Source: an uncultured Gammaproteobacteria bacterium
Lineage (GTDB): Bacteria > Patescibacteriota > Patescibacteriia > 2-12-FULL-60-25
Length of the DNA stretch: 64,000 nt
Direction of reading: 5' to 3'
Assembly: GCA_964345995.1 (NCBI GenBank)
Contig: CAYFST010000001.1
Location: 269-64,268 of the forward strand
The notes beneath the pieces are model-generated. The model saw nothing but the letters and a program-made list of their open reading frames with translations, searched no databases and had not been told where the DNA came from. Shown piece by piece: positions 15,204-50,640 of this stretch. The position numbers were made by a program, and so were the translations under genes. Numbering within the stretch: position 1 is the first letter of the stretch; the number at the start of each line of letters is the position of its first letter.

Positions 15204-15219
15204 CCACAACCTACTACAT

Positions 15220-17364: not shown

Positions 17365-17398
17365 AAAATAAATACAAAATACCTATTTTAATTACCGA

Positions 17399-30914: not shown

Positions 30915-30921
30915 AGTATTA

Positions 30922-32154
30922 TTATTCTGCTAAAGTTGCGCTTTTAATCATATAATTGAATAAAGCTGCAAAGTCCATGGTTTTAGCTCCGTTTGCGGTG
31001 TATTCTAATGTGTATACAGTATCTTTTATGAGCAACCAAGCTGTTAGCATATCTTTGGAATAAACAACTTGAAATCCGTTCATACTATTGCCCGGTATAT
31101 AGTCGGTAGCTGAACTTCCTTGATTATTATTTATAAGCCAGTTTTGCAAATCCGATACTTCATTATTTTTTTGCATTGAGATGTTGATACTGGCGGGCGT
31201 ACCCGTATAAATTATAACTGACCCACTTGGCCCGGGATTTCGACGCCAAGCTTGTGGCAGAGCGAATATCGCTAAACCGATTTTTTCTGTTTTCATGGCG
31301 TCTGAGACCGCAAGAGTTGCATTCGCTAAAGCAGGATCATAGCCGTTTTCCACTTCACTACCATCCTCGAAACCGTCAGCATCCGAATCGACGACATTGG
31401 GGTCCGAACCAAGCAATAACTCTTCGGAATTGGTTAAGCCATCAGCATCAGTATCCGTGCCCGGTTGCATTTTAACCATTTCATCCTCATCACTTTCCAT
31501 TATTTCCATTTCCGGAGCATCAGGATCTTGCATTTCGAATTCATTTTCAGGCTGAACCGGCTCCATAGAATCCATAGCCGAACCATCGGTTTGCGCATTC
31601 ATCATTTCTTCCATCATTCCTACGCTTGTTACTTGTGCCTGTTGTTGCTCCGCTTGGGCTTTTAACAATTCCATCGAAGTCTGAGAGGCGGCCAGCTTGT
31701 CCTCGTCAGGCTTGGGTATAGGCGATTTCACAGGGGCTTCGTCGGATGGTTCGCTTGTGGCCGGTACCGTGGTTGGTGCAACGGATCGGCCAGAATCGGT
31801 AATCAATGAGCCATCTTCTGCGGCAAAATAATTTTGGTAAACAAAATATGTAGCTACTCCCAAGCCGATTACGAGTAGCGGAATTCCGATGCCCAGTACT
31901 ATTTTCCAGGGAAAGCTACTTTTGGGCGCAGCCGGGCTGGCGTTTGGCGCAGGTGTTTGCGGAGTTGGTGGCGCAGGTTCGTTAATATCCGCAAATATAT
32001 CCTCGGGCTCTTTGGTGCCGGATACGTTAATACCCCCTTCTATCTTTTGCGGTTGAGGTGCGGTCGCGTGAGACTTTGCGGGAGCTTGAGACGGCTGTGT
32101 GTTGCCGGAACCTTGATTGGGTTCTACGGGGAGATTATCGGGGGCGTCGAACAT
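30922..32154 (-). CDS. paralogous single-pass membrane protein: Pro-rich N-terminus, TM, Met/Glu-rich acidic segment, thrombospondin-type-3-like repeats, C-terminal beta domain
   Basis: TM IVLGIGIPLLVIGLGVATYFVY. DTDADGLTNSEE...DSDADGFEDGSE at 31333-31458. The C-terminal domain aligns with that of the 474-aa neighbour (..TAWLLIKDTVYTLEY.. vs ..TYIAWNGKVFILSYE..). Confidence 0.7.
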   Translation of the reverse strand: MFDAPDNLPVEPNQGSGNTQPSQAPAKSHATAPQPQKIEGGINVSGTKEPEDIFADINEPAPPTPQTPAPNASPAAPKSSFPWKIVLGIGIPLLVIGLGVATYFVYQNYFAAEDGSLITDSGRSVAPTTVPATSEPSDEAPVKSPIPKPDEDKLAASQTSMELLKAQAEQQQAQVTSVGMMEEMMNAQTDGSAMDSMEPVQPENEFEMQDPDAPEMEIMESDEDEMVKMQPGTDTDADGLTNSEELLLGSDPNVVDSDADGFEDGSEVENGYDPALANATLAVSDAMKTEKIGLAIFALPQAWRRNPGPSGSVIIYTGTPASINISMQKNNEVSDLQNWLINNNQGSSATDYIPGNSMNGFQVVYSKDMLTAWLLIKDTVYTLEYTANGAKTMDFAALFNYMIKSATLAE

Positions 32155-32289: not shown

Positions 32290-32550
32290 TTATTGAAGTC
32301 CGGGAGGGAGGGTTGGCGGAAGAAGCTCGGATTCGCTGGGTTCTAAAGTTGTAGTGGCTCCGGATTGTTGGCCCGGGGGCGTATAATCGGACGGCGGGTC
32401 GTAGCGATTTTCTTGAGCCGGTGAGTTGTTTGCGCCAAATGGCTGATATATGGGACTGTTCGGGTTGGAACTGCGCAAATACCATACCACCCCGGCGATG
32501 GCTAAGACAGCAAGACCCGCGAAAAAGATTATGTAATAAATATATTTCAT
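32290..32550 (-). CDS. small single-pass membrane protein with Pro-rich tail
   Basis: MKYIYYIIFFAGLAVLAIAGVVWYL followed by P/S/Q/G-rich sequence. The ATG lies 1 nt after the giant gene stop. Confidence 0.5.
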   Translation of the reverse strand: MKYIYYIIFFAGLAVLAIAGVVWYLRSSNPNSPIYQPFGANNSPAQENRYDPPSDYTPPGQQSGATTTLEPSESELLPPTLPPGLQ

Positions 32551-32551
32551 A

Positions 32552-35500
32552 TTACCAGTTTATTACGTTAAAGCGTTGGATATACTCGGGATAGTTATTA
32601 TATATTTTCCTGTGATCAGCACCCGAAATGCCATATACAGACCAAAAAGTAGCACAGAATTCTTGGCGTTCAGAATCTTTTAACTTAGTATTATTATCAA
32701 AAATACTTATGATATCTTTTACCCCTGGTTCAAAAGGGCCTGTACAAATATGTTTTGCAGGTTCATCGTCAATGTATTTACAAGAGGCACCAAAATTATT
32801 CCAGCATGCCATGCCTTCGGGTCTGATTGCGGTTTGAGCATTGTTGTATTCATCAGCTGTATTGGGAAGCAGATATCCGCCCAAAACATTTTGTGAGTAA
32901 TCAAGGTCAGCCGCGCCTTGCCAATCATTATGGACAGTCACTTGACCTTGCGGTGAGACGCTGGCCATGTGCCAAAATGGCTTTTTAAAATCTTCCCGTG
33001 TCGAAATATTGTCTTGAGATTGGAAGGTTTGGATAGTATCAGCCGTGGCCAGATAGATTTGAGTCGCGGTTTTAGCCCAATATTCGCGCCAAGACAGGAT
33101 TTTGTTGGGATACTCGTCGATAGATGCATAGGCTTGCGGTTTATTGCCCGCTACCCAGGCCTCCACTTCCGTATCTGATAATGGCGCGGTAAAAAAGCTT
33201 TCTTTCATAAACGGTTCGTAACCAGGTGCCGCGAAATAGAATTCAATAGGTTTATCAAGACCTGATATTGGGGAATCCAAATCGTTTGGATCGGCATAGC
33301 GGAACAAGGCTGTGGCTTGGGCATTGTGTATTTCCAGATGGCAACGAGATAGATCCATAGGTTGTACCAATGGTGATTGCGAGCACACATCCTTGGGGTT
33401 GCAGAAATTCTGACAATTGGGTTGCAGGTTCAAATCCCACTCAGCAAACAATTTCCAAATTCCCAAACCTTGAGTACAGTTATCCATACAAGCATTGACT
33501 CCGATTAACGGACAATTATTATTTTTGGCGCGATCCCATTTAAGCGTGGGGCAGATTAGAGCCGTATGCGGTGCCTGACGCAGATTCAAGACGCCTTGAT
33601 TCAGCCAATTGTAATCACGGGCGCAGGTAAGTCTTTGTGCTGAGTTCTCGGCGTGAACCTGGTCGGTGCCTCTATTTGTATATGAGCAAAGATCGCCGCC
33701 GAATTGATCTACCGTTGTTTGGTACAAATCACCACCTCCCACGCCGGAATTTAACATGTTACGCGCAAGACGTGCTTGGTTATTGGGCCAAATTACGTGC
33801 GGGGTCCACATTTTATCCCAAGGGAACCAGAGATTGACTATTTGATCTTGACAACCCGGGCTATTGGGATTCTCTTTGCAGGCTTTGAGTTTTTGCCAGC
33901 CTTGGCTATCGAGCAGAGTTGGGCGACCGTAGCTTAAATAACCTTCGCCCCGGGCCGGGCGTGGGTAAATGAAGATCATGCCTAGCATTTCTTGAAAGGG
34001 GAAGCTCTCGGCCGAGAATTCATCAGTGGTGAAAGACCAGTAACCGCCACGCTCGCCTTCGTCGATATCCATATCGAATTCATGCGCGATTGAGGGCAGG
34101 CAGCCGTCAGCCGGACGTTCGTTGACCGGTTCGGTGCAGATGTTATTATCGAACATGTCGATGGTTAACTTGTATTTATCGCATTCACCGCGCGAGGCCA
34201 GATTATTGAATTCGAAGCGGCCATTTTCATCGGTTAGTTTTTGGTCTACGACTATGTTGCGGTATTGCAAGGATACACGCGCGCTTGGTACGGGCTGGAG
34301 CCACACGCGATCCATGATATAGCCATGAATTGTGGCATCGCCGATTTCATCCGAACAGCGACCGCAACCACCGGGTTTACAATCGGGCGTGCAAATTGGC
34401 TTATCATTAGATTCGTAAACCGTTCTAAAACCGTTTTGGGCTCCGATTTGATTGACACAGCGATAAAATGTTGTTTTGGACGGCCATTCGTTTTGTGGTA
34501 ACCAATATGACTCCAACGTAAGGATGTTTGTGTTTTTTACTGGATGAAGTGCCGTTGTAGATTCCGTTCCCATTAAGCCGCAGTCTATAAGAATTTGATT
34601 TAATAGTCTATTATTATTGACATCGTTAATTATCTTTTCCGCTTTCAATACACAGCTCTTGAATGATGGGTCATCGCAAGTGTAATTTTTAGCCGCTGTA
34701 GAAGATGTTATTTCAATAGCACGATTAAGCTGGCTGTTAAGCGCGAAATCATAACCTAATTGTTCGCAAGTTAAATCGGTTGGATTATCGCCCTCAGCCA
34801 TGATTTGGCAGGGCGGGTTTTCGCAAACTTCGCCAATATATCCTTTAACGGCAATTGTGTTGGCATTTGCGGTGGTGACCTCTGAGCCTAGGACGTAGTT
34901 AGCAGGGTCATAATCGGCCGGCTCAACAGGGATATTGCCGTCACACTGCTCGCCCGGTTCTTTGATGCCGTTACCGCAATAACCGCCGGCTTTAGCCAGG
35001 ATTTTGCACTGAAGCGAGCAATCGTTGCAGGTTGAGCCGTATTGGGCTTGGCAGACGGATTTACCGTTGTTCACACCATGGTCGCATTCTTCGACGTTAG
35101 TGTAGAGGTGGCCGTCGCCGCAGACGTTTAACTTACAGGTGGGCAGGCAAGCTTTGTTGTTGCCATTTTCAAAACCATCATCGCATTCTTCACCGGGATT
35201 CAAGATACCGTCTCCGCAATAATTGGCAATTATGCATTTACTCCATGTAGACTCCCATTTACATTGATTGGTAACACCCGGTTTTTTACAACGTCGAATA
35301 TGTTCTGTTGCGTAATCGCGACAAATGCCTTGAGAAATATTATTGGAACATTGCGCGTCTGTGTCACAATTTATGCCAAGATTAAGAGCTACACACTCCT
35401 GTCCGTCGCCACAACCTGAATCTGTTTGACAGGCTTGATAGGTTGATACGATGTTTGGATTATTGGCAAATAACGTGCCTGTAATTAATGATTTGCGTTC

Positions 35501-38500
35501 GGCCGAACTAAGGCAAACGCTGGCCGCGGTTGCGCAACGAGTTTGAGTAAAGCCTTCGCAGGATTGATAATTCAGTCCTTTTTTGTTGGGTATTGGATTA
35601 ATTATACAGCTGGTACCGGGGCAATCTTCGTCGGTTCTGCAAAGTTTTTGAAATCCTGTATTTTGATCACAGATGCCAGTGGCTGGTCCGCAAAGATAAT
35701 CTCCGCAATCGTCGTTGGATACGCAGGGCTGTTCTTTGTATGGACCTTCGGAACAGATGGCTGTGATTGTGCGCAGTACCTCACCGTCGCATTGTTCGGG
35801 TCCGTTGGTTTTACCATCACCGCAGTAAGGCGCTTTACCAGTACAGCCAAGGCCGCAGGTATCGGCAAGAGGCGTAGTGCCGTAACACATGGCCGTATCG
35901 GCGCAGTAAGCGCCGTTACCGTTGGCAGGGTCGGAGCCGGCGTCGCAATCCTCACCCGGACTTAGTTGGCCGTCGCCGCAGTATTTATCGTAACCCGTGC
36001 AATCGAGGTTGCAATGGCCGTATGTCCCGTTTAACACGCCGTCATCACATGTTTCTTGAATTTCACAAGTTTGACCAGCTTCACAATCAGCGTCGCTTGT
36101 GCAGGCTCCGTCTGTGATATTGCCCCCGCAAAGCCCATCCAGGCGACCATTACCGCAAGCAACTTTGGGCCGGCAAACCGATAGAATAGGATCTTGAGCC
36201 CAACGTTGGCAATCTTCGCAAACAGTGAGCATAAAACCATCGGCCTCGCCCGGTGCGGAATAATCACAAGTTTGGATTTTGGTTTCGCCAAGTTCGCAGA
36301 ATTCTTCGGCCGAACAAGTTGAGCCCGGGCATTCGGAATCATCCGCACATTGGTTACCGGCATTAACACCGCCGGCGCAGACCAGGCCTTTGATGCCGTC
36401 GCCGCAAATACCACTTATACCCATAACATCGTTATTGCAGATATTTTTGAATTTATAACGGAAACCGGCCGGTTGGCAGGAATTTACCGGGGCGGGCTCG
36501 GTACAAGATGCGGCCTTCGGATCTAAACAAGGCTTACAATCAGCATCAACCGTACACCAGCGTCCGTCGCTGATCGGGTTGTCGGTACGGCAATATTTAA
36601 GCTCCACATTGCCAATATTAACGGCGCTCCACCATTTTTCTGCAAAAAGAGGATTGCCTTGCGGATCGGTTACAAAGCTCATGGGCGGGACTTCGAAATT
36701 GGCAGCCAGTTCATAACGACGGCCGGCGTCAAAGGAACGGTATTTATAGAACCTGGAGGGAGCAAACGGTTCTTCGCTGCCATAAGGATCGTAGTTTGTT
36801 TGTGGCTGTGAGCCGTCGGCTTCCATATACGGGCACTTGAATTGGAGTTCCTCCGGATTCCAGCAAGTTTGCGTGTTATAACCCTCCTGCTCTTCGCAGA
36901 AATAGCCTTCGTTACAGTCTTCATCGGTTGCGCATGGCACGGTGCTTTGCGTGGCCGGGTTATCAACCGGCTTACAAAGTCCGCAAGTAATGAGACGATT
37001 AACAGGATCTAAGGGCATGGTGATGCCTAATTGATTGCCGAGTTGTTCTTGCCATGAGGGCCAACGCGAATTGGTGCGGGATTTTTGAAAAGTACCCTCG
37101 GATAAAACAGGGTAACGTTGGTTGGCGCTGTAATAATCATCCATGGCTTTACGAATGGATTTAAAATCGGCCAAGCGCTTGATATCGTGTTGTAATTTGT
37201 ATTTGAAGCTGGCGCAACGCAATTTGTCATCAGGAGAATTGTCAATTTTAAGACAATCCCAATCAGAAACACAAGTAACCGGAGCCGCCATAGCAGGATT
37301 GAGATAAATCTCACCCTGGCTTACGCCGGTTTGACCGCCTTTAACACAAACATTGCTGTTGTCAAAATTAAAATTAATGTTAAAGGCTACGTTATTGACC
37401 AATTGTTCAAAAATTTCTTGTGTAATGGTTGAAGCGCCAATGTTATGTGAAATTACCAGAATATTAGGATAGATGTTTCGTTCGATACCGGTTGTGTTAG
37501 GGAAGCTGATGTAAACCGTACCGCCATCGCGCACAGCCGGGTAGCCATCGATTTCGAACTGCTCGGGAGAACCCAAGAAGCCCTGCCTGCGATACCATTC
37601 AAGCGGGGTATCCATGTAAGGATTGCGGTATACGCGGATACCGATACCATCTGATTTATAAGCCGGGACATTGAAAGTAAATAGATATTGCCTCAAAATA
37701 CCTGAATCGATGTCGGACTGGGATAAGGGAATCAAGCTGGGATTTAGCGCCGGCATTAAACCATTTTCATGGTCGCGACAATACATGGTTTGAAAATTGA
37801 AAAAAGGTCCGTTGGGATAAGTTGCGTAAAGATCATCATAGAGCTGGCTGAGCCACAGCTCATTCGGGTTGCTAACAATGCTTTGATCGGCATCGCGAAA
37901 GGGATCAAAGCGTTCACCTTGGCGCGGAGGCCACGGGTATTCGCAAATAAAGACGGTAACCGGTTTTGAAGCGCTTACGAGACTGCCCTTTGTATTACCA
38001 TTACCCAAAGTGTCTTCAGTTATTTTTAAAGAAGCGAAAACCCAAGTATAACCGCTTTTATCTGATACTCTGACGGCGGATTGTGTTGTTTCTTGGCTGT
38101 AACTGGCTTGCTCATCATTGGTTTGAGCCAACTCGGGATTGTTGATTACCCATGGTTCCCATTGCCAATTATATAAACCGGGTATAGGGCTGATGGCCTG
38201 AGCTTGACCGTTTTGCACCGATTTGGCGCTGGCTTGCAATATATGCTCTTCGAAAGCTTGGTCAAAATAGAAAGGGCTGTAATCAACAGTCGGATCAATA
38301 GGTCCGTTATCTTGTATATTAATGGTATTTATGCGACAGATATCGGAACCGGTTTCAAACCACCAGGAAAATTCCCAGTCGTTACTATTGGCAATTTCAC
38401 CTCCCACATCGGCTATAGCAGTGACGTTGACCGCAGTACGTATACCTTGTTTGATATTGTCATCGTCTGCGGTAAGCAAATCGTCATCGCCTTCGAAGCG

Positions 38501-41500
38501 GACGATGTAGCGGGTATTGGGCTCAAGAACCTCGCTGAGTCGATAGACAAAAGCTTTGGTAGATGTTCCTTTGGTGGATAAATTACCGGGAACGGACTGC
38601 GTGCAATAAATCGCACGGGTCGGAGTGCCCGAAATCCAGGTGATTAAGGTGTTCCATCCATATACAATCCAATTCCAAAATCCTTTGGGTTCTTCCAATG
38701 TGGCCAGCGGTTCTGTTCCATCCGGGCAAGCTGTGCCACTAATTTCTTGGGCAATGGTAAAATTGCCGGCCACACTTTGCACATCCATGGGATGTTCAAA
38801 ATAAGCTTCAACTAAGATGTTACGGCAGAATCCTTGGCCGGAATTATCACCCTGCGGAAATGGCGCTTGGTTTTCATCCAGCGCGGGGCGGGGCGCGCAA
38901 CAACCGTTTTCATCTAAACCAAATCCAGAATCGCACTGGGATTCATCAGTTTTGCCACAACCGACTCCGTAGACAGCGGCGCCATCAACTTGATCATAAA
39001 CGCAGCTTAAGTCGGTGGACATTACTTGGGTCTCGGGATCAGGAGTGCCGGTACCAGGCTCTATGACGGCCAATTGTATTGGATCTGTCAGACCATCTCC
39101 CTCGCCAGCAGTGGCTCCACTTACTGTTAAGCCTGTGGTATGAAGAATACTTTCGCAAAGTTCGCCAGTTTCCAGAATTCCGTTGCCACAAAAACTGGGG
39201 TTTACGTATTTCCAAGATGAGCCCTCCAACAGGCAATTGGGTGAGCAGTGATCGCCGGCGATATTGTTTCCATCATCGCATTCTTCGCCATCTTCGAGCA
39301 CATTATTACCGCAACAATTGGGGAATGATGGATCGGGGCAAGCTTGAGAACCCAACTTAACGCATCTTTGATTATCGCAATAAGCGGGAACAGGCGAACC
39401 GGCCGCGGGAGCTTCGCAATTTTCACCGGCTTCCAAAATACCATTACCGCAAATGGACGCGACTTCCGGAGAGGATCCTGTGTGCAGGCAATTATTGGAA
39501 CAGCCTCGGCCGTTTTGATTCCCTAAATCACAATCTTCGCCTTCGGCGATATCTCCGTTGCCACAAGTGGTGCCGGGCATGGAGGTGGCTCCCAGGTTTT
39601 TGCAACCCGCTGAACAGCCGTTGTAATCACGAACTTCGCAAACACCGCCCGCATCATAACAATCATCAAATATTTGCTGAGTATTACACAGTTGACCCTC
39701 TAGACCGGAGGCTGTACTGGTTGTATCAAAACATCTGGTACCGGGGTCGCACATTTCACCTTCGGCATATTCGACAGAGTTATTACCGCAATTACCGCCC
39801 GGGACTTCTTTTAATAGACACGTGACCGGGTCACAAAGCCCGCCGCCGTCGCATTGTTCGCCAGCTCCGGATTCTATAGGTAAAAGTACGCAAGGTTGAC
39901 CGGTTTTCGCTAAACCGCCTTGGCAGAAATTATCGTCTACGGTTTCCACTATGCCGTTGCCGCAAAGAGCGGTTTGTCCAAAAATACCGTCAGAGCCTTT
40001 GGCCAAACAATTATTGGAACAGCCGTGAGGCAAAGACGCGCCCGTGTCGATAGCCGAAAAGAGGAAAGACGCAACTTGCTGATTAGGATCGTCAAATTCC
40101 CAATTGAAAGCTTGGTTGGTTTTTAGCATTTGACCATCGGCGCGACAATCGTCGGGAGCACTGATGACCTGAGCACTGAACAATTCCCTGTCGCCGATTT
40201 TTTCTTCGATTCTGCGAGTCGGCGTGATGTTTACGGCATCCGGTTGGCACTCTTCGTTTTCCAAGCGCGTGCGGAATTCCCATGTTTCAGATTGGTTCAT
40301 GGGCATACCGTGCTTGCTTTTGATCGGGTTGCCCGCGCCACCGTTTAGCCTAACATGGTAATAAGTAGCGCGCTTTAAATTTTGCACGGGTTCGATACGA
40401 ATGAAGCTATAAGGTGTGTTTTGATACTGAAGCAGAGGCGGGGTTTCGGGCAAAGTTACATTAATCGGAATTTCGACAAGATCTTCGGGCAGGCAATTTT
40501 CGGTGGCACATTCATAAACTTTGACATTTTGATAATAGTCGCCGGCTTTAATAGGATCGGCAATTAAAACCGAATTTTGACCGGCGGGCGGAGGATCGGC
40601 CCAAAGCGATGTATTCATTTGCGCCCAAATGTAGATATTTGAGCAAGCCGTATCGCAATCCGGGAATTTATCGACAACATGCGGAGTTATAAATTGAATA
40701 TAGAGATCAGCGAGGCCTGTAATTTTAGAGACATCTTCTTGAGCGCTAACGCTAACCGGAGGGTTCATGGCTTCTGAATCACCGGCGACCACTGTTTGAC
40801 TGCAAGCATTGGGAGTTGGCGAATTTTTAACCCAAGCTTTGGTTAGAGGATCTGCGGACCAATTAAATTCAAAGCCTTCGCATTTCATCAAGTTACAAAC
40901 AGCGTCTTTGGTGGCCGGTAACGCCTCGAATTCTTGCTCTTCATTACCCTCAACATAAGCTTTCCAAGGATTCACGTAAACATCGCCGATTTCACAAGGT
41001 CCGGTATCGGAACGTGTGCGAAAGCGGTAGCAATAACCGAGACCGGGTTCGGGACAATTGGTATTTTCATCCATGGTTGTTCCGTAGATCAAATCCTCGG
41101 AGCGGATTTCACTGGATACAAAGACGTAATAAGTTGTTTCAGGTTCGAGCGCGGCAGTGGGCTCGAAGGATACATAAGGATCGCCCCCGGAAATCATGGT
41201 GGGCTCCGTAGTTGACAGTTCTTCCAGCTCATCGCAGGGGTCGGCGCCTTGGCCTGTGCATTTTTGTAAGCTAAATAGAGTATTGGGACTTTGCTCGGGA
41301 GGCCAATTGATGGGAATATCAAAAAGAACTCCGATACGCGGGACCGGATCGATGCAGACTTGGTCACCGCCGGGATGATTTTGCCAAGGAGTCGGTGAAG
41401 GTAATTGATTGCCGGCGCCTGATACATCACAAAATTCGACAACGCGCGGAGTTTTGGGGACCACACCGGTGGAAAACTGCCACGAATACTGAGCTTTAAA

Positions 41501-43963
41501 GGAAACGGCTTGGCATTCTCCGTCGGCGCAGGTGCCATTAGGGCAACAGGTTTGACCGGAATCACAAACGGAAGCGTCATCGCGGCAATCGGCAACGGCA
41601 AATTGCATTGAGTTGGTATCTACTCCGGAGATACTCGCGAAAACCGGACCCGTAACCGCTTGATTGGGAACGGTAACATCGATCTGATTATCTTGCCAAG
41701 CTTGTATGTCCGCGCTCTGTCCGCTCGTAAAGACGACTTCATTACCGGGCGAAGATTGGCCTAAATTTTCACCATAGAGGGAAACATAGGAACTCGCGGG
41801 ACCGGCACTGGGATTGATGGTACATAATCCCGGGCCGGCTTGACCGTCTGTATAAGTAAAGTCAACTTGATTTGAGTTTTCAGAATCCGACCGTTCGATG
41901 TAGATGGAAAATTGAGCCGGTTTAACCACATTTGCATCCACGGAAGGAACTTTGATGACTATATTGTTATTTTTCCACCAACCTTGAGCACAACCCTCAC
42001 TAAAAGCCGAATCACCCACATACGTTTTATCCGCCGCTTTATCATAGAAATAAACTACGCCGGGGTTATTACCAAAGCGTTCACCTACAATGGACAGCAT
42101 TTGGCCACGTGGCGCTTGACCCGGATCCACATAAGTAATTACAGGCGCGGGTTGAGGCGCGTCTTTGCTTTCAATCGTAAAAGGAACCTTGTTTGATTGC
42201 AGGCCGTTTTCATGAGCGACCCAAACCGGATAAAGGCCGGGGTTGACTATGGGGGCTAAGAAGTCGATAGATGTATCACTCCAGTTTTGGCCGGCAACAC
42301 TCATGTTGCCAAAATTAATAGTACCAGCACTAGACCCCAGGTTAGCGCCATCCAATGTGACGGAAATTCCGGGTTCGCCCTGATTAGGATTGGCGGCGCA
42401 AAGGCCCGGTACCTGTTCGTCGGTTAACGTAAAGGTGAATTGTGGACCCAAAGAATCATCCGTTTGGTCGGTTAAATTACTATTGGCGTTTGTAAGTTTA
42501 ATGGGGCCGGTAGCAGCTCCTTGTGGGACTTCGACTAAAACGTAATTATCAGACCAAGTTGTGGCGCCGGCGGCCACGCATGCTTGAGGGGCCGATGCTG
42601 TAACCTCGGGAGGGCCTAAAAACGAAACTTGACCGGTATCGCCAAAATTATCACCCCATATGGATACATATGTACCTTCATCACCTGAAAGCGGTTTAAC
42701 ATCCGTAATTACAGGTTGCTCAACGCAGACTCCGTTTATGCAAAGTCCGGAAGCGCATTGACTATTAGTTTGACACGCGCCACCCGAACAAGCCAGACAA
42801 TCGGCGCCGCCACAATCCATGCCGGTTTCATCATAATTTTGCAAGTTATCAAAGCAATGCTCAGCCAATACCACAACATCAACCGATGCCGAACCTGTAT
42901 TTGTGTCTAAATCAGTGCCTAAAACATTGATTGTGTACGATTGTTTAGGTGTCTTGCCTACCGTATCCCAGAAACCTGATGATTCGAATGTCTGCGGACT
43001 AGGAGAGCTCAAAGGCCCGTCACTATGAAATAATTGACCACCTTCTTCCCATTCCATACCCGAGACACCGATATCATCTTTAGCTCGCGCCAAAACCTCT
43101 ACAGCGGTGTCGACAGGTACGCTTTTTCCATTGTATAGATTTAAGATATTGATATCAGGCGCTTGGCTGTCGACAGTATCGCCTGATGTAAAGGTAAAAT
43201 CACAACTGGGATAAAAGCCACCACAACGCAATTGCTGATTGGCTATGGAGCGTAGATCGGTTGTAATGCTTACTTGGTATTGGGTGTCAAACGCAAAACA
43301 AGTTTTTTGCGGTGCGCCGGGGCATGGGTCGGTAGGCGTAAAGATAACGCGTTTTGGGTTTCCCGGATCAACCTGCCAAGAACCGCTAACTTGCGGTGCT
43401 ATGGAAAATGCATCAAGCGTGGCATCGTCCACCTCTCTATTGAATAAAACACGGATAATCAAATTAGCATTGCCGACAGAACCTTCGGGGCTTTTGGCCA
43501 TTACTCGAAAAACATCACCGCCACCGGGGCCAAAACCTCCGCCACCGGAACCTCCGCCACCGGAACCTCCGCCACCGCCCCCCGTGCCCGTGGCCGCATT
43601 AATCAGCGAGTTGATGATGAATGAAGCTATAGCCCAGGAAAACAAGATGATAATTACTCCGATAATACCATTTCTAAGCCAAGCTTTAGCTTTATCTACC
43701 TTGGCGGCGTCTCCGCCGGCAGTCATCCACAAAAAACCGGCATAGAGTATGATGACGAGAAGCACAACACCCAAAAAGCCGAGCACTATGTTTATAAGGC
43801 GCGCGGCAATGATGCGCGGGTCAGTATCAGGTAGTTGCACGGTTTGACCCACCGCATTGAGTCCGGTATCCATCTGAGCAAAAACAGGCTGTGCAAAAGC
43901 CAGACTTGTTAATTGCAAGACTGTAAGAAATACTATAGTGATGAGTAATTTGCGGATTTTCAT
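32552..43963 (-). CDS. giant (3,803 aa) secreted/membrane-anchored Cys-rich multidomain protein with N-terminal VirB2/TrbC-like pilin module
   Basis: Uninterrupted 11,412-nt ORF with ATG at 43961-43963. I counted the residues in blocks of ten and reached exactly 3,803. The domain calls are listed as separate features. Confidence 0.85.
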   Translation of the reverse strand: MKIRKLLITIVFLTVLQLTSLAFAQPVFAQMDTGLNAVGQTVQLPDTDPRIIAARLINIVLGFLGVVLLVIILYAGFLWMTAGGDAAKVDKAKAWLRNGIIGVIIILFSWAIASFIINSLINAATGTGGGGGGSGGGGSGGGGFGPGGGDVFRVMAKSPEGSVGNANLIIRVLFNREVDDATLDAFSIAPQVSGSWQVDPGNPKRVIFTPTDPCPGAPQKTCFAFDTQYQVSITTDLRSIANQQLRCGGFYPSCDFTFTSGDTVDSQAPDINILNLYNGKSVPVDTAVEVLARAKDDIGVSGMEWEEGGQLFHSDGPLSSPSPQTFESSGFWDTVGKTPKQSYTINVLGTDLDTNTGSASVDVVVLAEHCFDNLQNYDETGMDCGGADCLACSGGACQTNSQCASGLCINGVCVEQPVITDVKPLSGDEGTYVSIWGDNFGDTGQVSFLGPPEVTASAPQACVAAGATTWSDNYVLVEVPQGAATGPIKLTNANSNLTDQTDDSLGPQFTFTLTDEQVPGLCAANPNQGEPGISVTLDGANLGSSAGTINFGNMSVAGQNWSDTSIDFLAPIVNPGLYPVWVAHENGLQSNKVPFTIESKDAPQPAPVITYVDPGQAPRGQMLSIVGERFGNNPGVVYFYDKAADKTYVGDSAFSEGCAQGWWKNNNIVIKVPSVDANVVKPAQFSIYIERSDSENSNQVDFTYTDGQAGPGLCTINPSAGPASSYVSLYGENLGQSSPGNEVVFTSGQSADIQAWQDNQIDVTVPNQAVTGPVFASISGVDTNSMQFAVADCRDDASVCDSGQTCCPNGTCADGECQAVSFKAQYSWQFSTGVVPKTPRVVEFCDVSGAGNQLPSPTPWQNHPGGDQVCIDPVPRIGVLFDIPINWPPEQSPNTLFSLQKCTGQGADPCDELEELSTTEPTMISGGDPYVSFEPTAALEPETTYYVFVSSEIRSEDLIYGTTMDENTNCPEPGLGYCYRFRTRSDTGPCEIGDVYVNPWKAYVEGNEEQEFEALPATKDAVCNLMKCEGFEFNWSADPLTKAWVKNSPTPNACSQTVVAGDSEAMNPPVSVSAQEDVSKITGLADLYIQFITPHVVDKFPDCDTACSNIYIWAQMNTSLWADPPPAGQNSVLIADPIKAGDYYQNVKVYECATENCLPEDLVEIPINVTLPETPPLLQYQNTPYSFIRIEPVQNLKRATYYHVRLNGGAGNPIKSKHGMPMNQSETWEFRTRLENEECQPDAVNITPTRRIEEKIGDRELFSAQVISAPDDCRADGQMLKTNQAFNWEFDDPNQQVASFLFSAIDTGASLPHGCSNNCLAKGSDGIFGQTALCGNGIVETVDDNFCQGGLAKTGQPCVLLPIESGAGEQCDGGGLCDPVTCLLKEVPGGNCGNNSVEYAEGEMCDPGTRCFDTTSTASGLEGQLCNTQQIFDDCYDAGGVCEVRDYNGCSAGCKNLGATSMPGTTCGNGDIAEGEDCDLGNQNGRGCSNNCLHTGSSPEVASICGNGILEAGENCEAPAAGSPVPAYCDNQRCVKLGSQACPDPSFPNCCGNNVLEDGEECDDGNNIAGDHCSPNCLLEGSSWKYVNPSFCGNGILETGELCESILHTTGLTVSGATAGEGDGLTDPIQLAVIEPGTGTPDPETQVMSTDLSCVYDQVDGAAVYGVGCGKTDESQCDSGFGLDENGCCAPRPALDENQAPFPQGDNSGQGFCRNILVEAYFEHPMDVQSVAGNFTIAQEISGTACPDGTEPLATLEEPKGFWNWIVYGWNTLITWISGTPTRAIYCTQSVPGNLSTKGTSTKAFVYRLSEVLEPNTRYIVRFEGDDDLLTADDDNIKQGIRTAVNVTAIADVGGEIANSNDWEFSWWFETGSDICRINTINIQDNGPIDPTVDYSPFYFDQAFEEHILQASAKSVQNGQAQAISPIPGLYNWQWEPWVINNPELAQTNDEQASYSQETTQSAVRVSDKSGYTWVFASLKITEDTLGNGNTKGSLVSASKPVTVFICEYPWPPRQGERFDPFRDADQSIVSNPNELWLSQLYDDLYATYPNGPFFNFQTMYCRDHENGLMPALNPSLIPLSQSDIDSGILRQYLFTFNVPAYKSDGIGIRVYRNPYMDTPLEWYRRQGFLGSPEQFEIDGYPAVRDGGTVYISFPNTTGIERNIYPNILVISHNIGASTITQEIFEQLVNNVAFNINFNFDNSNVCVKGGQTGVSQGEIYLNPAMAAPVTCVSDWDCLKIDNSPDDKLRCASFKYKLQHDIKRLADFKSIRKAMDDYYSANQRYPVLSEGTFQKSRTNSRWPSWQEQLGNQLGITMPLDPVNRLITCGLCKPVDNPATQSTVPCATDEDCNEGYFCEEQEGYNTQTCWNPEELQFKCPYMEADGSQPQTNYDPYGSEEPFAPSRFYKYRSFDAGRRYELAANFEVPPMSFVTDPQGNPLFAEKWWSAVNIGNVELKYCRTDNPISDGRWCTVDADCKPCLDPKAASCTEPAPVNSCQPAGFRYKFKNICNNDVMGISGICGDGIKGLVCAGGVNAGNQCADDSECPGSTCSAEEFCELGETKIQTCDYSAPGEADGFMLTVCEDCQRWAQDPILSVCRPKVACGNGRLDGLCGGNITDGACTSDADCEAGQTCEIQETCDDGVLNGTYGHCNLDCTGYDKYCGDGQLSPGEDCDAGSDPANGNGAYCADTAMCYGTTPLADTCGLGCTGKAPYCGDGKTNGPEQCDGEVLRTITAICSEGPYKEQPCVSNDDCGDYLCGPATGICDQNTGFQKLCRTDEDCPGTSCIINPIPNKKGLNYQSCEGFTQTRCATAASVCLSSAERKSLITGTLFANNPNIVSTYQACQTDSGCGDGQECVALNLGINCDTDAQCSNNISQGICRDYATEHIRRCKKPGVTNQCKWESTWSKCIIANYCGDGILNPGEECDDGFENGNNKACLPTCKLNVCGDGHLYTNVEECDHGVNNGKSVCQAQYGSTCNDCSLQCKILAKAGGYCGNGIKEPGEQCDGNIPVEPADYDPANYVLGSEVTTANANTIAVKGYIGEVCENPPCQIMAEGDNPTDLTCEQLGYDFALNSQLNRAIEITSSTAAKNYTCDDPSFKSCVLKAEKIINDVNNNRLLNQILIDCGLMGTESTTALHPVKNTNILTLESYWLPQNEWPSKTTFYRCVNQIGAQNGFRTVYESNDKPICTPDCKPGGCGRCSDEIGDATIHGYIMDRVWLQPVPSARVSLQYRNIVVDQKLTDENGRFEFNNLASRGECDKYKLTIDMFDNNICTEPVNERPADGCLPSIAHEFDMDIDEGERGGYWSFTTDEFSAESFPFQEMLGMIFIYPRPARGEGYLSYGRPTLLDSQGWQKLKACKENPNSPGCQDQIVNLWFPWDKMWTPHVIWPNNQARLARNMLNSGVGGGDLYQTTVDQFGGDLCSYTNRGTDQVHAENSAQRLTCARDYNWLNQGVLNLRQAPHTALICPTLKWDRAKNNNCPLIGVNACMDNCTQGLGIWKLFAEWDLNLQPNCQNFCNPKDVCSQSPLVQPMDLSRCHLEIHNAQATALFRYADPNDLDSPISGLDKPIEFYFAAPGYEPFMKESFFTAPLSDTEVEAWVAGNKPQAYASIDEYPNKILSWREYWAKTATQIYLATADTIQTFQSQDNISTREDFKKPFWHMASVSPQGQVTVHNDWQGAADLDYSQNVLGGYLLPNTADEYNNAQTAIRPEGMACWNNFGASCKYIDDEPAKHICTGPFEPGVKDIISIFDNNTKLKDSERQEFCATFWSVYGISGADHRKIYNNYPEYIQRFNVINW
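34178..34366 (-). other. carboxypeptidase-regulatory-like (transthyretin-fold) domain candidate, aa 3200-3262
   Basis: IHGYIMDRVWLQPVPSARVSLQYRNIVVDQKLTDENGRFEFNNL matches the G.V........A.V.L.......TD..G.F.F..L pattern. Confidence 0.45.
34934..36586 (-). repeat. Cys-rich repeat cluster II, aa 2460-3010
   Basis: Examples: CGDGIKGLVC, CGNGRLDGLC, ETCDDGVLNGTYGHCNLDCTGYDKYCGDGQLSPGEDCD, YCGDGKTNGPEQCDG, YCGDGILNPGEECDDGFENGNNKACLPTCKLNVCGDGHLYTNVEECDHGVNNGKSVC, YCGNGIKEPGEQCDG. Confidence 0.7.
36998..37198 (-). other. embedded pseudopilin/type IV pilin-like globular-head segment without the N-terminal hydrophobic helix, aa 2256-2322
   Basis: KLQHDIKRLADFKSIRKAMDDYYSANQRYPVLSEG......W......L..QLGITMPLDPVN. 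This follows the RD..R..D...I..AL..YY...G.YP......LP.DP pattern of T2SS-G/T4P pilin heads. Confidence 0.5.
39149..40024 (-). repeat. Cys-rich repeat cluster I (CGNG[IV].E.GE.CD...C...C type), aa 1314-1605
   Basis: Examples: CGNGIVETVDDNFC, CGNGDIAEGEDCDLGNQNGRGCSNNCLHTG, CGNGILEAGENCE, CGNNVLEDGEECDDGNNIAGDHCSPNCLLEG, CGNGILETGELCE. These resemble the Myxococcus cysteine-rich repeat / DUF4215 family (name recalled from memory). Confidence 0.7.
41594..42718 (-). repeat. four IPT/TIG-like Ig repeats, aa 416-790
   Basis: Recurring P(V/L)I(T)..P..G..G..V.I.G.NFG....V.F pattern. Examples: PVITDVKPLSGDEGTYVSIWGDNFG, PVITYVDPGQAPRGQMLSIVGERFG, CTINPSAGPASSYVSLYGENLG. Confidence 0.55.
43178..43516 (-). 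other. Ig-like (SbsA/Big-type) domain candidate, aa 150-262
   Basis: VFRVMAKSPEGSVGNANLIIRVLFNREVDDATLDAFSIAPQVSGSWQVDPGNPKRVIFTP resembles bacterial surface-layer Ig modules. The 645-aa neighbour carries similar modules. Confidence 0.4.
43517..43591 (-). repeat. Gly/Ser linker (TGTGGGGGGSGGGGSGGGGFGPGGG) encoded partly by 15-nt tandem repeats
   Basis: The plus strand reads cctccgccaccggaa twice, then cctccgccaccgcc (43536-43579). Confidence 0.85.
43592..43828 (-). other. VirB2/TrbC-like (T4SS-pilin-like) two-helix hairpin, giant protein aa 46-124
   Basis: DPRIIAARLINIVLGFLGVVLLVIILYAGFLWMTAGGDAAKVDKAKAWLRNGIIGVIIILFSWAIASFIINSLINA. Confidence 0.7.
43874..43963 (-). other. signal peptide of the giant protein
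   Basis: MKIRKLLITIVFLTVLQLTSLAFAQPVFAQ. Confidence 0.6.
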
Positions 43964-43965
43964 GA

Positions 43966-44340
43966 TTATTTTAAAGCATCGATGATTGAATCAATCGAAA
44001 AAGTGGTTATAGCCCAAGCCGAAAGCACGATAATTAAGCCGATAATGGCATTACCGATAGCGCGTTTAGCATAGTCCGTTTTTTCTTTATTGCCACCTGA
44101 TATCATAAAGAGAAAACCGGAGTGAAGGATCAGAATCACGAATATAAGTGACAGGAAACCAATAATAACATTGATGATTTCGGCCACGATCAGCCTAGGG
44201 TCTTTTTCGGCGAGATTTAACCATTCAGACAGAGCTTCTTGCCCGATATCCAATGTGCCGGCATGCGCGGGCAATACAAAAGCAACCACAGCAACTAAGC
44301 TGAGTACGAATACTGTATTTTTTTTTGGATAGTATTTCAT
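43966..44340 (-). CDS. stand-alone VirB2/TrbC-like (T4SS-pilin-like) protein, 124 aa
   Basis: Signal peptide VFVLSLVAVVAFVLPAHA, then DPRLIVAEIINVIIGFLSLIFVILILHSGFLFMISGGNKEKTDYAKRAIGNAIIGLIIVLSAWAITTFSIDSII. Start moved to the ATG at 44338-44340, 4 nt after the upstream stop. Its stop lies 2 nt before the giant gene ATG. Confidence 0.75.
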   Translation of the reverse strand: MKYYPKKNTVFVLSLVAVVAFVLPAHAGTLDIGQEALSEWLNLAEKDPRLIVAEIINVIIGFLSLIFVILILHSGFLFMISGGNKEKTDYAKRAIGNAIIGLIIVLSAWAITTFSIDSIIDALK

Positions 44341-44344
44341 AGAA

Positions 44345-46282
44345 TTAGGGTTTCCAACCCGGTGAGGATTCGCACTTCGCACTCCAAGGAGTTTCATTAC
44401 ATAAATTGGGATTATTGGGTCCGCCTGAATAAGGCACACCATCGCCATCCAAATCAGAAGCAGCGGGGTTAAAGCAATTTTGATATACATTCATGAGTCC
44501 CTGGGTGATACTGGGTGAATAGATACTCATAACCGTCCAGGGATCTTGGTTAATCGCCGGTGTTTCGGATGGCAAAAACGGCCTATGCTTGATATTAATT
44601 TTGGAGGCCACGGGTTCTTCGCCAAAAGTTACCGGATCACCGGCGGCATTCAGTTGTTCCAAAGACGAATAGTAGTACCAGGTATTGGGTCCAACACCTT
44701 GTTCGGCCGGGCCGGCTCTGCCGAGAGTGACATTGGCCGAATTTACAGTATGACTCAACAAAACAGCATCAAAACTGATTGTGGCCGGATCATCAGTCGC
44801 TACGCCACCGGCTAAAACATCAGGAACAATGCCAGTTACAACAGGTGCGTCTAGAAAGATTTCATCATTGGTGGCAAATGTGAAAAAGGCGTTGTCATTA
44901 CCTCCGGGAGGCGGACCTTGAGCTACACCGTTGCCATTACCATCTAAAGAATTACCGGCCATATCAACAATTCCATCAAAACCGAAGGGTCCGACTTCGG
45001 CGGCCAAAGGTGGTGTATTACTTAAAGTCGCGGCTTTTATGTTGACATCAATCGCGCTGGAGGCGGGTAGGCAATACATGGTTATAAGGCACGAATTGGT
45101 ACCGCATTCATCCGTGGTAATAAATTCAACCGTACGATAACCGTTACTGATACGATATTCTCCGGCAACGACATCGGCTCCATTGCCCGAGTCGGCCGAT
45201 ACAGTGATGTTTTGGAAGTTGGCCGAACTGTTGGCGGGATCGTAATAACCCGAAGCACTCATGGGAAGTATAGGCTCGTTAAAATTGATTTGTACCACAA
45301 TGTTACGAGCATAAGTTCCGGCGGCATATGGGATGTGAGACGTAACTTTTGGGGGTGTGTTATCAATTTCGGTGGAAACTTCAAAACTCCAAGAATATCC
45401 ATTATCAAAATCGCCAACAAACATAGCTGTACCTGATGCATTTTGTATTCCGCCGGAACCGCCCTCCAAAACAACTTCGTACCAAGTGTTTGAATTGGCG
45501 TTGCCCAGAGGATCGTTTGGTTTGATTACAATAGATTTGCCATCAGGTGAAATACTAACGCGGGCTTGATCAGGAAGTAAATTTTGCGACGCATTGTCTT
45601 GAGGGTGTATTTTAACCAAATTATCATTCAACTGAAAAGGCGGCGGCGATTGGTTAGCATCCCAATTACCGATAAACGACGCCGGATCAACAGGATCTTT
45701 AAAAGTGATGGTAATAGCCGTATTGCGCGCTACATTTTTTTGATCGCGCTCGGGAAAATGATATTCAATAACACCTTCACCCAAAGAACCTGAATTACCC
45801 CATTGACCAAAACCGCCGGGTCCGGCCCAATTGACCCCTGATGATTGAAAAAAACCTCCGCCACTATCCGGATCGAAAATACCTAAAATAAAGTTAACTA
45901 TGGCAAACGATAAAAAGATGATAACAAGGCCTATAACGGCATTACGGATTCGCTTAACCGCGTTGCTGACTTTTTCAGGATTACCGCCGGCTGTCATGTA
46001 CTCAAAACCGCTATAAAGCAAAATTATGAGAAGCACCACACCCACGAAGCCGAGTGCGATATTGATGATGCGACCTATGATGGTAAACAAATCTTGGCTT
46101 TCACCCACACCCGCGCTTTGCGCGACCGCATTGACATTTTCTTGTCCGCTTTCGAATTGTGCCAGAGCGGGCAGAGCTTGTGATAAACCCGCCAATACAA
46201 CAAACAAAAGCAAGACGGTTATTAATATCCGTTTTCCAATAAAAAACTTTTGTATTCTTGTTACAAATTCCTCCCTCTGCAT
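44345..46282 (-). CDS. 645-aa fusion of a VirB2/TrbC-like pilin module, Gly-rich linker and several Ig-like (SbsA-type) domains
   Basis: Signal ITVLLLFVVLAGLSQALPALA. Pilin module at 45881-46096 (IIGRIINIALGFVGVVLLIILLYSGFEYMTAGGNPEKVSNAVKRIRNAVIGLVIIFLSFAIVNFILG), followed by GGGFFQSSGVNWAGPGGFG. Ig-like segments include NTAITITFKDPVDPASF and PPKVTSHIPYAAGTYARNIVVQINFNEPI. Confidence 0.75.
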   Translation of the reverse strand: MQREEFVTRIQKFFIGKRILITVLLLFVVLAGLSQALPALAQFESGQENVNAVAQSAGVGESQDLFTIIGRIINIALGFVGVVLLIILLYSGFEYMTAGGNPEKVSNAVKRIRNAVIGLVIIFLSFAIVNFILGIFDPDSGGGFFQSSGVNWAGPGGFGQWGNSGSLGEGVIEYHFPERDQKNVARNTAITITFKDPVDPASFIGNWDANQSPPPFQLNDNLVKIHPQDNASQNLLPDQARVSISPDGKSIVIKPNDPLGNANSNTWYEVVLEGGSGGIQNASGTAMFVGDFDNGYSWSFEVSTEIDNTPPKVTSHIPYAAGTYARNIVVQINFNEPILPMSASGYYDPANSSANFQNITVSADSGNGADVVAGEYRISNGYRTVEFITTDECGTNSCLITMYCLPASSAIDVNIKAATLSNTPPLAAEVGPFGFDGIVDMAGNSLDGNGNGVAQGPPPGGNDNAFFTFATNDEIFLDAPVVTGIVPDVLAGGVATDDPATISFDAVLLSHTVNSANVTLGRAGPAEQGVGPNTWYYYSSLEQLNAAGDPVTFGEEPVASKINIKHRPFLPSETPAINQDPWTVMSIYSPSITQGLMNVYQNCFNPAASDLDGDGVPYSGGPNNPNLCNETPWSAKCESSPGWKP

Positions 46283-46311: not shown

Positions 46312-46342
46312 AAAAAAATATAATCCCCATGTTGGGATTATA
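46312..46342 (-). terminator. intrinsic terminator of the yqeY-rpsU unit
   Basis: 9-bp stem TATAATCCC (46319-46327) pairs with GGGATTATA (46334-46342) around a 6-nt loop, followed on the minus strand by T7 (46312-46318). Confidence 0.7.
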
Positions 46343-46345
46343 TCA
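46337..46345 (-). promoter_or_regulatory. extended -10 candidate (TGATATAAT) embedded in the 5' arm of the terminator hairpin, about 55 nt upstream of the pilin-locus ATG
   Basis: The minus strand reads ..tttTATGATATAATCCC... TATAAT is the reverse complement of 46337-46342, with TG at -15/-14. The -35 is poor (TCGCAA). Confidence 0.3.
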
Positions 46346-48660: not shown

Positions 48661-49266
48661 TTATAGATTATAATCGGGATTATTAAATACTTTCCATCTA
48701 TCCAGAGGCCAGCCGCGCACCCACACGCGACCAACAACTTCATACTCCTGAATTGGTCCGAAAAAACGGGAGTCCAAGCTGGAGGCGCGATTATCGCCCA
48801 AGACAAAATATTCGTCGGTTTTTAGGGTATCGCGGCGAGTTTGAGCTGTATAGCTATCGTTTAAATACTTACTTTCGTCCAAGACGATACCATTGGGATA
48901 TTCATCGTTATAAATTTTTACCTGACCATTGGCCACTTCCACGGTTTCACCGGGCAAACCAACCAAACGTTTAATAAAATAATTTTTTGGTTCATTGGGA
49001 TAGTGAAAGACCAAAATATCTCCACGTTCGGGTTCGGAAAAGCGATAAGATATTTCATCGATGATTAAATATTCGTGATCAAAGAAATTAGGTTCCATGG
49101 ACGCACCCTTTACATAAAAGGGTTGGATGAGAAAATAACGAACCGGAATGATGATGGCCAATGATATTGCCACCACTTGTACCAATTCAAGAAAAAAATT
49201 CAATGCGACTTTGGGCGTCGCGCCATCAAGATCGCTATTACTTGTTTTTCTGTTGAATATTCCCAT
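48661..49266 (-). CDS. lepB: signal peptidase I
   Basis: TM anchor, GASMEPNF (Ser), IKRLVGLPGE (Lys), GDNRASSLDSR. Confidence 0.9.
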   Translation of the reverse strand: MGIFNRKTSNSDLDGATPKVALNFFLELVQVVAISLAIIIPVRYFLIQPFYVKGASMEPNFFDHEYLIIDEISYRFSEPERGDILVFHYPNEPKNYFIKRLVGLPGETVEVANGQVKIYNDEYPNGIVLDESKYLNDSYTAQTRRDTLKTDEYFVLGDNRASSLDSRFFGPIQEYEVVGRVWVRGWPLDRWKVFNNPDYNL

Positions 49267-50616: not shown

Positions 50617-50640
50617 TTAGAGTTTTGTGAGAAGTTAGAT

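Follow-up and report, generated by a model that had tools for sequence, protein, structure and literature searches.

Why pilin hairpins should be joined to surface proteins of hundreds or thousands of residues is the question raised by a locus in a 64,000-nucleotide stretch of DNA from an uncultivated, ultra-small member of the Patescibacteria, Candidatus Uhrbacteria (contig CAYFST010000001.1 of assembly GCA_964345995.1, positions 269 to 64,268), which we call the window. Four close-packed genes on the minus strand span positions 32290-46282 and encode a mid-size protein of 645 amino acids (aa), a short pilin of 124 aa, a giant of 3,803 aa and a small protein of 86 aa (Table 1). The first three products carry a signal peptide and a two-helix hairpin of PF18895, a family of pilins from type IV secretion systems (T4SS), and in the mid-size protein and the giant this hairpin is followed by a large ectodomain. 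Such modular VirB2-type pilins are widespread and, as far as we could find, undescribed in the searched literature. We tentatively prefer, at somewhat less than an even chance, to regard them as surface fibres that are anchored and co-assembled through the pilin-derived hairpin, which would serve as an anchor and as a lateral assembly module.

The hairpin is a T4SS pilin module

A first-pass annotation, made from the sequence alone, had reported that the N-termini of the three products are alike and had compared them to the hairpin of the conjugative pilins VirB2 and TrbC. The N-termini do align, over about 90 residues with 36-48% identity and 29 invariant columns, and three adjacent PF18895 genes with hairpins of this identity constitute a tandem VirB2 array. 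Full-length scans with PF18895 (T4SS_pilin) gave E = 1.8e-11 (44.4 bits) for the mid-size protein, 1.2e-7 (32.1 bits) for the short pilin and 7.1e-6 (26.4 bits) for the giant, the last being just below the Pfam gathering score of 26.6 bits. When the hairpins of the window and of its orthologues were scanned alone, all 29 matched the family at E <= 1, that of the giant included, with a best E of 1.8e-15; the mid-size hairpin alone scored 50.4 bits. The same family is precomputed for all three genes in the source databases.

The comparison with VirB2 and TrbC was borne out by these searches, with the TrbC/VirB2 profile itself being matched weakly. The TrbC/VirB2 family PF04956 is by far the commonest second family, with sub-threshold matches in 11 of the 29 hairpins (best E = 1.4e-5), and the best score in the window, that of the mid-size hairpin, is 21.7 bits (E = 2.5e-4) over positions 27-98 of the 98 in its profile. 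These scores fall below the gathering score of 27.9 bits and the similarity is consistent with remote homology, not with membership. NCBIfam NF045849, which describes pilin-like conjugal transfer proteins of Mycoplasma integrative and conjugative elements (ICEs), gives the mid-size protein 46.3 bits (cut-off 40), while the short pilin (26.8 bits) and the giant (24.3 bits) score below the cut-off. Profile searches against all PDB sequences gave no link to solved structures of VirB2, TraA or conjugative pilins. The conserved motif of the hairpin runs D-P-R, N, G-F, Y-G-F-x-M-T-x-G-G, K, A-K and N-x-x-I-G. A similarity arising from signal-peptide and transmembrane (TM) composition alone is ruled out by the profile E-values together with this conserved polar motif. 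In size, only the 124-aa product falls within the range of free PF18895 pilins (about 100-180 aa), and the 645- and 3,803-aa products lie outside it.

Membrane-spanning hydrophobicity is confined in a hydropathy scan to three segments, namely the signal peptide and the two hairpin helices. The segment preceding helix 1 is acidic (net charge -2.2) and the hairpin loop is basic (net charge +1.6, with a mean of 3.6 lysine or arginine residues). These signals fit a topology in which the N-terminus is outside, the loop inside and the C-terminus outside, and therefore the fused ectodomains would lie outside the cell. The signal peptide occupies aa 1-41 of the mid-size protein, whose predicted signal-peptidase site (A41/Q42) is invariant in 86 homologues. 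In the short pilin, a signal peptide of about aa 1-27 is followed by the PF18895 hairpin at about aa 47-116.

Ectodomains of the two fusions

The AlphaFold2 model of the mid-size protein, built with 86 homologues, has a mean predicted local distance difference test score (pLDDT) of 86.5. Residues 2-34 form the helix of the signal peptide and residues 65-97 and 102-136 form a helical hairpin (pLDDT 82-89), in line with the VirB2/TrbC-like layout. The Gly-rich linker is disordered at residues 140-157 and is followed by beta-sandwich domains with pLDDT >90. Foldseek matches of this ectodomain comprise the S-layer protein SbsC, adhesion molecules made of chains of immunoglobulin-like (Ig-like) domains and single CopC-like domains, with no enzyme fold among them. 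An enzymatic ectodomain was considered and rejected, as nothing in its favour was returned by the Pfam, NCBIfam, PDB sequence or fold searches.

The giant is arranged in the order of signal peptide, PF18895 hairpin, poly-Gly linker (aa 121-150), Big_5 domain, four TIG domains and Cys-rich repeats, and it contains 187 cysteines. The repeats are of the myxo type (TIGR02232), with CG[ND]G motifs in the segments aa 1334-1620 and aa 2520-3010, and a CarboxypepD_reg-like domain is located at aa 3211-3267. The blocks kept across distant orthologues are the hairpin, the TIG region (about aa 400-1035), aa 1663-2065 and aa 2088-2432. The model of the last block is shallow, with few true orthologues among the homologues of the giant's fragments (mostly Cys-repeat proteins); it reached a pLDDT of 63, with no fold match better than E = 0.07, and a PDB sequence search with this block gave no match.

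The motif K.K..RD.KR.aD...i..AL..Y....g.YP ... WPSW...LG..lP.DPVN ... FYxYR...G..YEL.AnFE was observed within this block, at about aa 2250-2432 (36668-37200). Its likeness, at the level of motifs, to a type IV pilin or pseudopilin head (aa about 2250-2440) was tried as a candidate; it found no support in Pfam, PDB or Foldseek, and T2SSG matched the block in only 1 of 14 orthologues (E = 0.17).

The fusion pair in related genomes

The genes for the 645-, 124- and 3,803-aa products recur unchanged in three independent assemblies, namely an ENA microbial-mat metagenome, JGI 3300012002 and Logan. The closest relatives of the mid-size protein are found in metagenome-assembled genomes (MAGs) of Candidatus Uhrbacteria, with 82% and 76% identity, and more distant ones occur in Buchanan-, Falkow- and Magasanikibacteria (class ABY1, Patescibacteria). 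We compared 22 related loci (L001-L022), and in all of them the mid-size and giant fusions are adjacent and co-directional, with sizes of 618-1,056 aa for the former and 1,711 to >3,480 aa for the latter. The fusion of the hairpin to large ectodomains, as proposed in the first-pass annotation, is thus real, and the identical genes in three assemblies together with the orthologous pairs in 22 loci rule out an assembly artefact.

The order lepB-hisS-(rpsU)-yqeY, mid-size fusion, giant fusion, (fn3/TSP3 membrane proteins)-ybeY-dgkA is kept among these loci. lepB is present in 19 of the 22, and the other three (L009, L010 and L021) have too little upstream sequence. The locus of the pair is a vertically inherited part of the core genome. 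An origin from a mobile element or ICE is ruled out by the synteny shared across Uhr-, Buchanan-, Falkow- and Magasanikibacteria and by the lack of an integrase or relaxase in the window. The short pilin is confined to the six closest loci, all of Uhrbacteria (L001-L006), and is absent from L007-L022. Its hairpin is nearest to those of the giants (45-53% identity), and it is most simply explained as a lineage-specific duplication.

The giant is split into two adjacent ORFs (open reading frames) in three distant loci, with the break just before block 2088-2432, which lies there near the N-terminus of a separate second ORF (L017, L018 and L020; Table 1). The second ORF of L020 has a hydrophobic N-terminus of its own. 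One locus that carries the pair, L021 (DATJQC010000067.1), is labelled 'Candidatus Nanoarchaeia archaeon'; its hairpins are 78-84% identical to those of the Patescibacteria loci L019 and L022, and it is probably a mis-binned Patescibacteria contig.

Evolution of the hairpins

In distant orthologues of the giant, the hairpin is the most conserved segment, with 36-49% identity as compared to 23-30% for the ectodomain. Mid-size and giant hairpins of the same locus share 55.5% identity on average (up to 79%), as compared to a mean of 45.8% across loci, and in five isolated lineages the nearest neighbour of each hairpin is its own-locus partner. The two hairpins of one genome thus evolve in concert, a pattern showing that they are kept interchangeable. 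In several loci, the fraction of identical residues that are also encoded by identical codons is 0.55-0.69, as compared to a baseline of 0.28-0.4 for orthologues, and gene conversion therefore contributes to this concert. Concerted hairpins with such signs of gene conversion were observed in the mid-size and giant genes of L012, L013, L016 and L019-L022. The fusion pair as a whole diverges moderately and in a clock-like manner, at about the rate of yqeY.

Distribution of the hairpin family

A profile of the three hairpins retrieved 52,927 cluster representatives from 1.84 billion proteins, and 12,898 of these representatives reach E <= 1e-10. Among the best 150 of the 52,927 representatives, to which the counts of architectures refer, giants of 2,400-3,850 aa whose only hairpin is N-terminal number at least 21, proteins of 540-1,100 aa number about 20, and short pilins are numerous. 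About half (P0001, P0027, P0069 and about 70 others) carry 2-16 tandem hairpins in one polypeptide; P0001, for example, is 552 aa long and consists of one signal peptide followed by six complete hairpins. Tandem hairpins are topologically consistent, each starting and ending outside, yet it is difficult to see such polypeptides as subunits of a classical helical pilus. The family of the mid-size protein comprises 326 clusters at 90% identity, almost all with PF18895 and PF13205, which carry the NCBI names 'Ig-like domain-containing protein' or 'pilin'. The PF18895 hairpin serves as a building block that is reused, whether alone, in 2-16 tandem copies or fused to giants, and this bears on how 'pilin' counts in genome surveys are to be read.

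Secretion machinery and published pilin arrays

Scanned against Pfam, the window's main long ORFs yielded housekeeping genes only; VirB4, VirB6, VirB10, VirD4 and pilus ATPases did not turn up, and no T4SS component appeared among the unannotated ORFs of the window even at E <= 1. The first-pass annotation had noted this absence correctly and had inferred from it, among other points, that the module may act as a membrane anchor. As a sign of independence from a T4SS, the absence does not hold in the light of the survey by Quinonero-Coronel et al. 2025 (PMC12102498), in which 3,035 Patescibacteria genomes were searched with PF18895 and PF04956. VirB2-like genes were present in 1,948 assemblies and were located near virB4 in only 1,135 of these. 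In Uhrbacteria, VirB2-like genes lie hundreds of genes away from virB3-virB4-trsD (Table S3 of PMC12102498), and it is therefore normal in this clade to find no machinery within 64 kb, which is no evidence of T4SS independence.

The same survey describes 441 tandem arrays of 2-11 VirB2-like genes, adjoining or one gene apart, whose paralogues share 25% identity on average and 54% at most (PMC12102498). Tandem arrays and missing nearby machinery are already known, and the earlier statement that the arrangement is without characterised precedent stands only for the new element, the fusion of the PF18895 hairpin to huge ectodomains, of which no mention was found in the searched literature, including PMC12102498.

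Possible roles of the fusion pair

For surface fibres co-assembled through the hairpin, the reading that we prefer, the following course can be envisaged. Each protein would leave the cytoplasm through Sec, and signal peptidase I would cleave it between the conserved A-x-A and the Q/G that follows, as the sequence and the model suggest. The PF18895 hairpin would then sit in the cytoplasmic membrane with its N-terminus outside, its basic loop inside and its C-terminus outside. In the 645- and 3,803-aa proteins, a flexible Gly-rich linker would join this outward C-terminus to a long rod, formed by the chain of Ig-like domains in the former and by Ig-like/TIG domains and disulfide-rich repeats in the latter, and the rod would extend outwards from the surface of the monoderm cell as a fibre resembling an adhesin. 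The two fusions, and here also the short pilin, may pack through their hairpins into a hetero-oligomeric surface structure that contacts a host cell or a substrate. The hairpin seems to be more than a passive anchor because it is strongly conserved, more so than the ectodomain, because it is alike between the partners and because it is the same module, recognised by the same profile, as that of the free pilins.

The arrangement of domains, the signals of topology, the conservation, the synteny and the broad distribution are established here, whereas oligomerisation, surface display and an adhesive role are inferred. Several points weigh against co-assembly through the hairpin. For tethering, an ordinary single-pass signal anchor would do, and the hairpin could be conserved because a T4SS recognises it. 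Concerted evolution of the hairpins is at least in part gene conversion and is, taken alone, no proof of physical interaction. The pair diverges at about the rate of yqeY, more slowly than one would expect of a host-specific adhesin, and a general component of the envelope would fit this just as well. Finally, the central and C-terminal regions of the giant have no assigned function.

A T4SS-dependent pilus is the main alternative, though a somewhat unlikely one. Here a VirB3/VirB4/VirB6-type machine encoded elsewhere in the genome would extract the hairpins from the membrane and polymerise the free short pilins into a filament, and the fusions, being incorporated rarely or first, would end up at its tip. 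In that position they would provide the adhesion for which diderm systems use VirB5 and Gram-positive systems PrgB. The hairpin is of the same family as the essential pilin arrays of the Southlakia T4SS locus (PMC10633639; PMC12857230), a locus inside which predicted pilins were found to be essential (Wang et al. 2023, PMC10633639). VirB4 is present in most Patescibacteria (2,417 of the 3,035 assemblies) and in 25 of the 44 Uhrbacteria MAGs covered from Table S1 of the survey (PMC12102498). The usual distance of Uhrbacteria VirB2-like genes from virB4, the better conservation of the hairpin than of the ectodomain, the position of the short pilin between the two fusions in this lineage and the outward C-terminus with its flexible linker also speak for a pilus. 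Peptides fused to the C-terminus of F-pilin are displayed on F pili.

Set against a pilus is the absence of a free pilin from the core locus of 16 of the 22 relatives, which also weakens the earlier proposal that the short pilin is the major subunit of a conserved three-part system. VirB4 went undetected in 19 of the 44 Uhrbacteria MAGs covered (about 1 Mb), one of which, the 1.16-Mb assembly GWF2_39_13, keeps two adjacent VirB2-like genes (PMC12102498); the point is weakened by MAG incompleteness. Moreover, the locus is surrounded by housekeeping synteny and not by T4SS genes, polypeptides with 6-16 tandem hairpins in the family are hard to fit into a helical pilus and none has yet been demonstrated for any monoderm T4SS. 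Polymerisation into an extracellular pilus is not reported for any PF18895 member in PMC12857230 or PMC10633639.

It is a speculative and rather doubtful idea that the mid-size protein and the giant make up a complex which nucleates a Patescibacterial T4SS filament or sits at its tip, as new modular conjugative-type pilins in the roles of VirB5 and PrgB, with a fibre of about 3,700 residues coupling the monoderm T4SS to the host. If true, it would account for the way in which these epibionts direct their essential T4SS towards a host. Patescibacteria depend on contact with host cells, and T4SS and VirB2-like arrays are essential in the sole genetically tractable species. No adhesin has been found so far for the Patescibacteria T4SS, and PrgB-type adhesins were not detected in Patescibacteria (PMC12102498). 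The fusion pair is a concrete candidate for this missing contact apparatus, whether as the tip of a pilus or as a surface fibre assembled through its hairpins.

A general scaffold of the cell envelope, that is, an S-layer-like or wall-spanning coat which is constitutive in Uhrbacteria/ABY1, tethered by the hairpin and not an adhesin, appears quite improbable. The core-genome position of the pair between lepB/hisS/yqeY and ybeY/dgkA/ftsA/ftsZ in every relative, its moderate clock-like divergence similar to that of yqeY and the disulfide-rich nature of the giant would all suit such a coat. SbsC is the best fold match of the mid-size ectodomain (E = 1.7e-9), but the match, whose template-modelling score is low (0.15), reflects only a chain of Ig-like domains. 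Pfam and NCBIfam searches found no S-layer homology (SLH) or other wall-binding domain in the fusions, the TIG and Big_5 domains and the Cys repeats of the myxo type are features typical of surface proteins such as adhesins, and a single-copy protein of 3,803 aa is unlikely as a lattice subunit.

A relic pilin hairpin reused as a mere two-pass TM tether, with no assembly role and no T4SS link, is compatible with the topology and with a window devoid of secretion machinery but is very improbable, as its motif of polar and small residues is kept at about 50% identity where the ectodomains are at about 25%, although an anchor needs hydrophobicity only, and as the hairpins match the profile as well as free pilins do.

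Layout of the locus and neighbouring genes

The ORF coordinates, the gaps and the single-TM ORF had been given correctly in the first-pass annotation. The spacers are 4 nucleotides (TTCT) between the mid-size and short pilin genes and 2 nucleotides (TC) between the latter and the giant, and the 86-aa ORF starts 1 nucleotide past the stop of the giant. For the short pilin, the mechanical ORF reaches 44490, and the start that yields 124 aa is the one taken by gene callers in three sources. The 86-aa ORF is called as a gene in four sources and its cluster is a singleton; no such ORF was seen downstream of the giant in the more distant loci.

Table 1. Features of the locus and its surroundings. 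Positions are those of the window unless another locus is named.
Feature	Size or residues	Position	Strand	Basis
Mid-size modular pilin	645 aa	44345-46282	minus	ORF + PF18895
Hairpin of mid-size protein	aa 64-136	45875-46093	minus	PF18895, AlphaFold2
Gly-rich disordered linker of mid-size protein	aa 137-168			
Ectodomain of mid-size protein, Ig-like/Big_5 beta-sandwich domains in a chain	aa 170-645			
Stand-alone short pilin	124 aa	43966-44340	minus	ORF + PF18895
Giant modular pilin	3,803 aa	32552-43963	minus	ORF + PF18895
Hairpin of giant	aa about 47-120	43604-43825	minus	PF18895
Conserved internal block of giant	aa 2088-2432	36668-37702	minus	
ORF with one TM helix	86 aa	32290-32550	minus	
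Terminator-like hairpin after yqeY	11-bp stem + T run	46317-46344	minus	
Weak promoter-like site ATGATA-18-TATATT, overlapping the terminator-like hairpin		46346-46317	minus	
Signal peptidase I (S26, lepB), upstream of the fusion pair		48661-49266	minus	
Two acidic membrane proteins 3' of the locus	410 aa (TSP3-like), 474 aa (fn3)	29490-32154	minus	
Split giant of L017	2088 + 699 aa	L017:13245-21604		
Split giant of L018	1968 + 1069 aa	L018:12689-21794		
Split giant of L020	2409 + 1053 aa	L020:12487-22868		

The upstream edge of the locus is marked by a terminator-like hairpin. The first-pass annotation had placed a strong terminator there; the hairpin itself is present (46344-46317), and the number of terminators in the region is no higher than in shuffled sequence. 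From this hairpin as far as 27400, down to ftsA, no other intergenic terminator was found on the minus strand, in agreement with the earlier statement that none convincing precedes the downstream ybeY, dgkA and ftsA genes. Nearly all genes from 58967 to 19873 share one strand. Since the terminator scan does not rise above shuffled sequence and gene strand is nearly uniform, the evidence for an operon is weak and its structure can only be inferred.

The two acidic membrane proteins 3' of the locus have one TM helix each, at about aa 75-103, and their relatives hold the same position in L008, L014, L017, L019 and L022. The signal peptidase I encoded by lepB is a candidate processing enzyme for the pilins. 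Maturation of RP4 TrbC uses TraF, a LepB-like peptidase. The presence of lepB upstream of the pair might also merely reflect conserved housekeeping gene order. Upstream of lepB (49360-51219), a 418-aa protein with about five C-terminal TM helices and a 192-aa basic, Cys-containing protein are encoded; both genes are syntenic in L001-L008 and L011 and match no family even at E <= 1.

Elsewhere in the window, two adjacent same-strand paralogues (9957-11531 and 11636-13231) encode cofactor-independent phosphoglycerate mutase (iPGM_N + Metalloenzyme). The stretch 13446-16917 on the plus strand is the most GC-rich of the window (52.7% at 14001-16000 as compared to about 45% overall) and contains ORFs of 585 and 484 aa, neither of which belongs to a Pfam family; both have one TM helix, centrally placed, and the first looks coiled-coil-like. 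At 17062-17782, an RNHCP-domain gene adjoins one that encodes a 23S rRNA intervening-sequence protein (PF05635), next to a tRNA synthetase gene of the lysS/asnS type.

Comparison with known systems

Extended VirB6 proteins and PrgB resemble the fusions in having large surface domains that are attached to, or work with, a T4SS for target-cell contact. However, VirB6 is polytopic (at least 5 TM helices) and PrgB is anchored through LPXTG, and neither uses a VirB2-type hairpin.

A pilin module that carries a functional or adhesive module on its exposed end is also known from modular type IV pilins, such as PilB and PilC of Streptococcus sanguinis, and from two-domain tip adhesins of the FimH type. 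These differ in their unrelated pilin fold and in their dependence on prepilin peptidase and type IV pilus ATPases, or on the chaperone-usher pathway, whereas the proteins described here have no class III signal peptide and their grafted modules are about ten times larger or more.

With the Mbov_0395-family protein (NF045849), the mid-size hairpin shares a profile score above the cut-off, and both occur in monoderm, MPF-FATA-related T4SS lineages. The Mbov_0395-family protein is small and encoded in an ICE, in contrast to the core synteny, the lack of ICE genes and the large ectodomain seen here.

Canonical TrbC, VirB2 and TraA (PF04956) have in common with the hairpins a Sec signal peptide, two hydrophobic helices, a short basic loop and a sub-threshold profile similarity over the whole hairpin. 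The hairpins nevertheless score below the Pfam cut-off and match no solved pilin; canonical pilins are small, and the setting here is monoderm. VirB2 and TrbC are cyclised head to tail. Because of the large C-terminal fusion, such cyclisation would be impossible for the mid-size protein and the giant unless the fusion is cleaved off.

The Patescibacteria VirB2-like arrays (PMC10633639, PMC12102498) share with this locus the family PF18895, tandem divergent paralogues, the layout of a signal peptide plus hairpin and a position often far from virB4. They have been discussed as small pilins, whereas two of the three members here have ectodomains attached, one about 500 and the other about 3,650 aa long, and the conserved unit, set in housekeeping synteny, is the fusion pair and not the short pilin.

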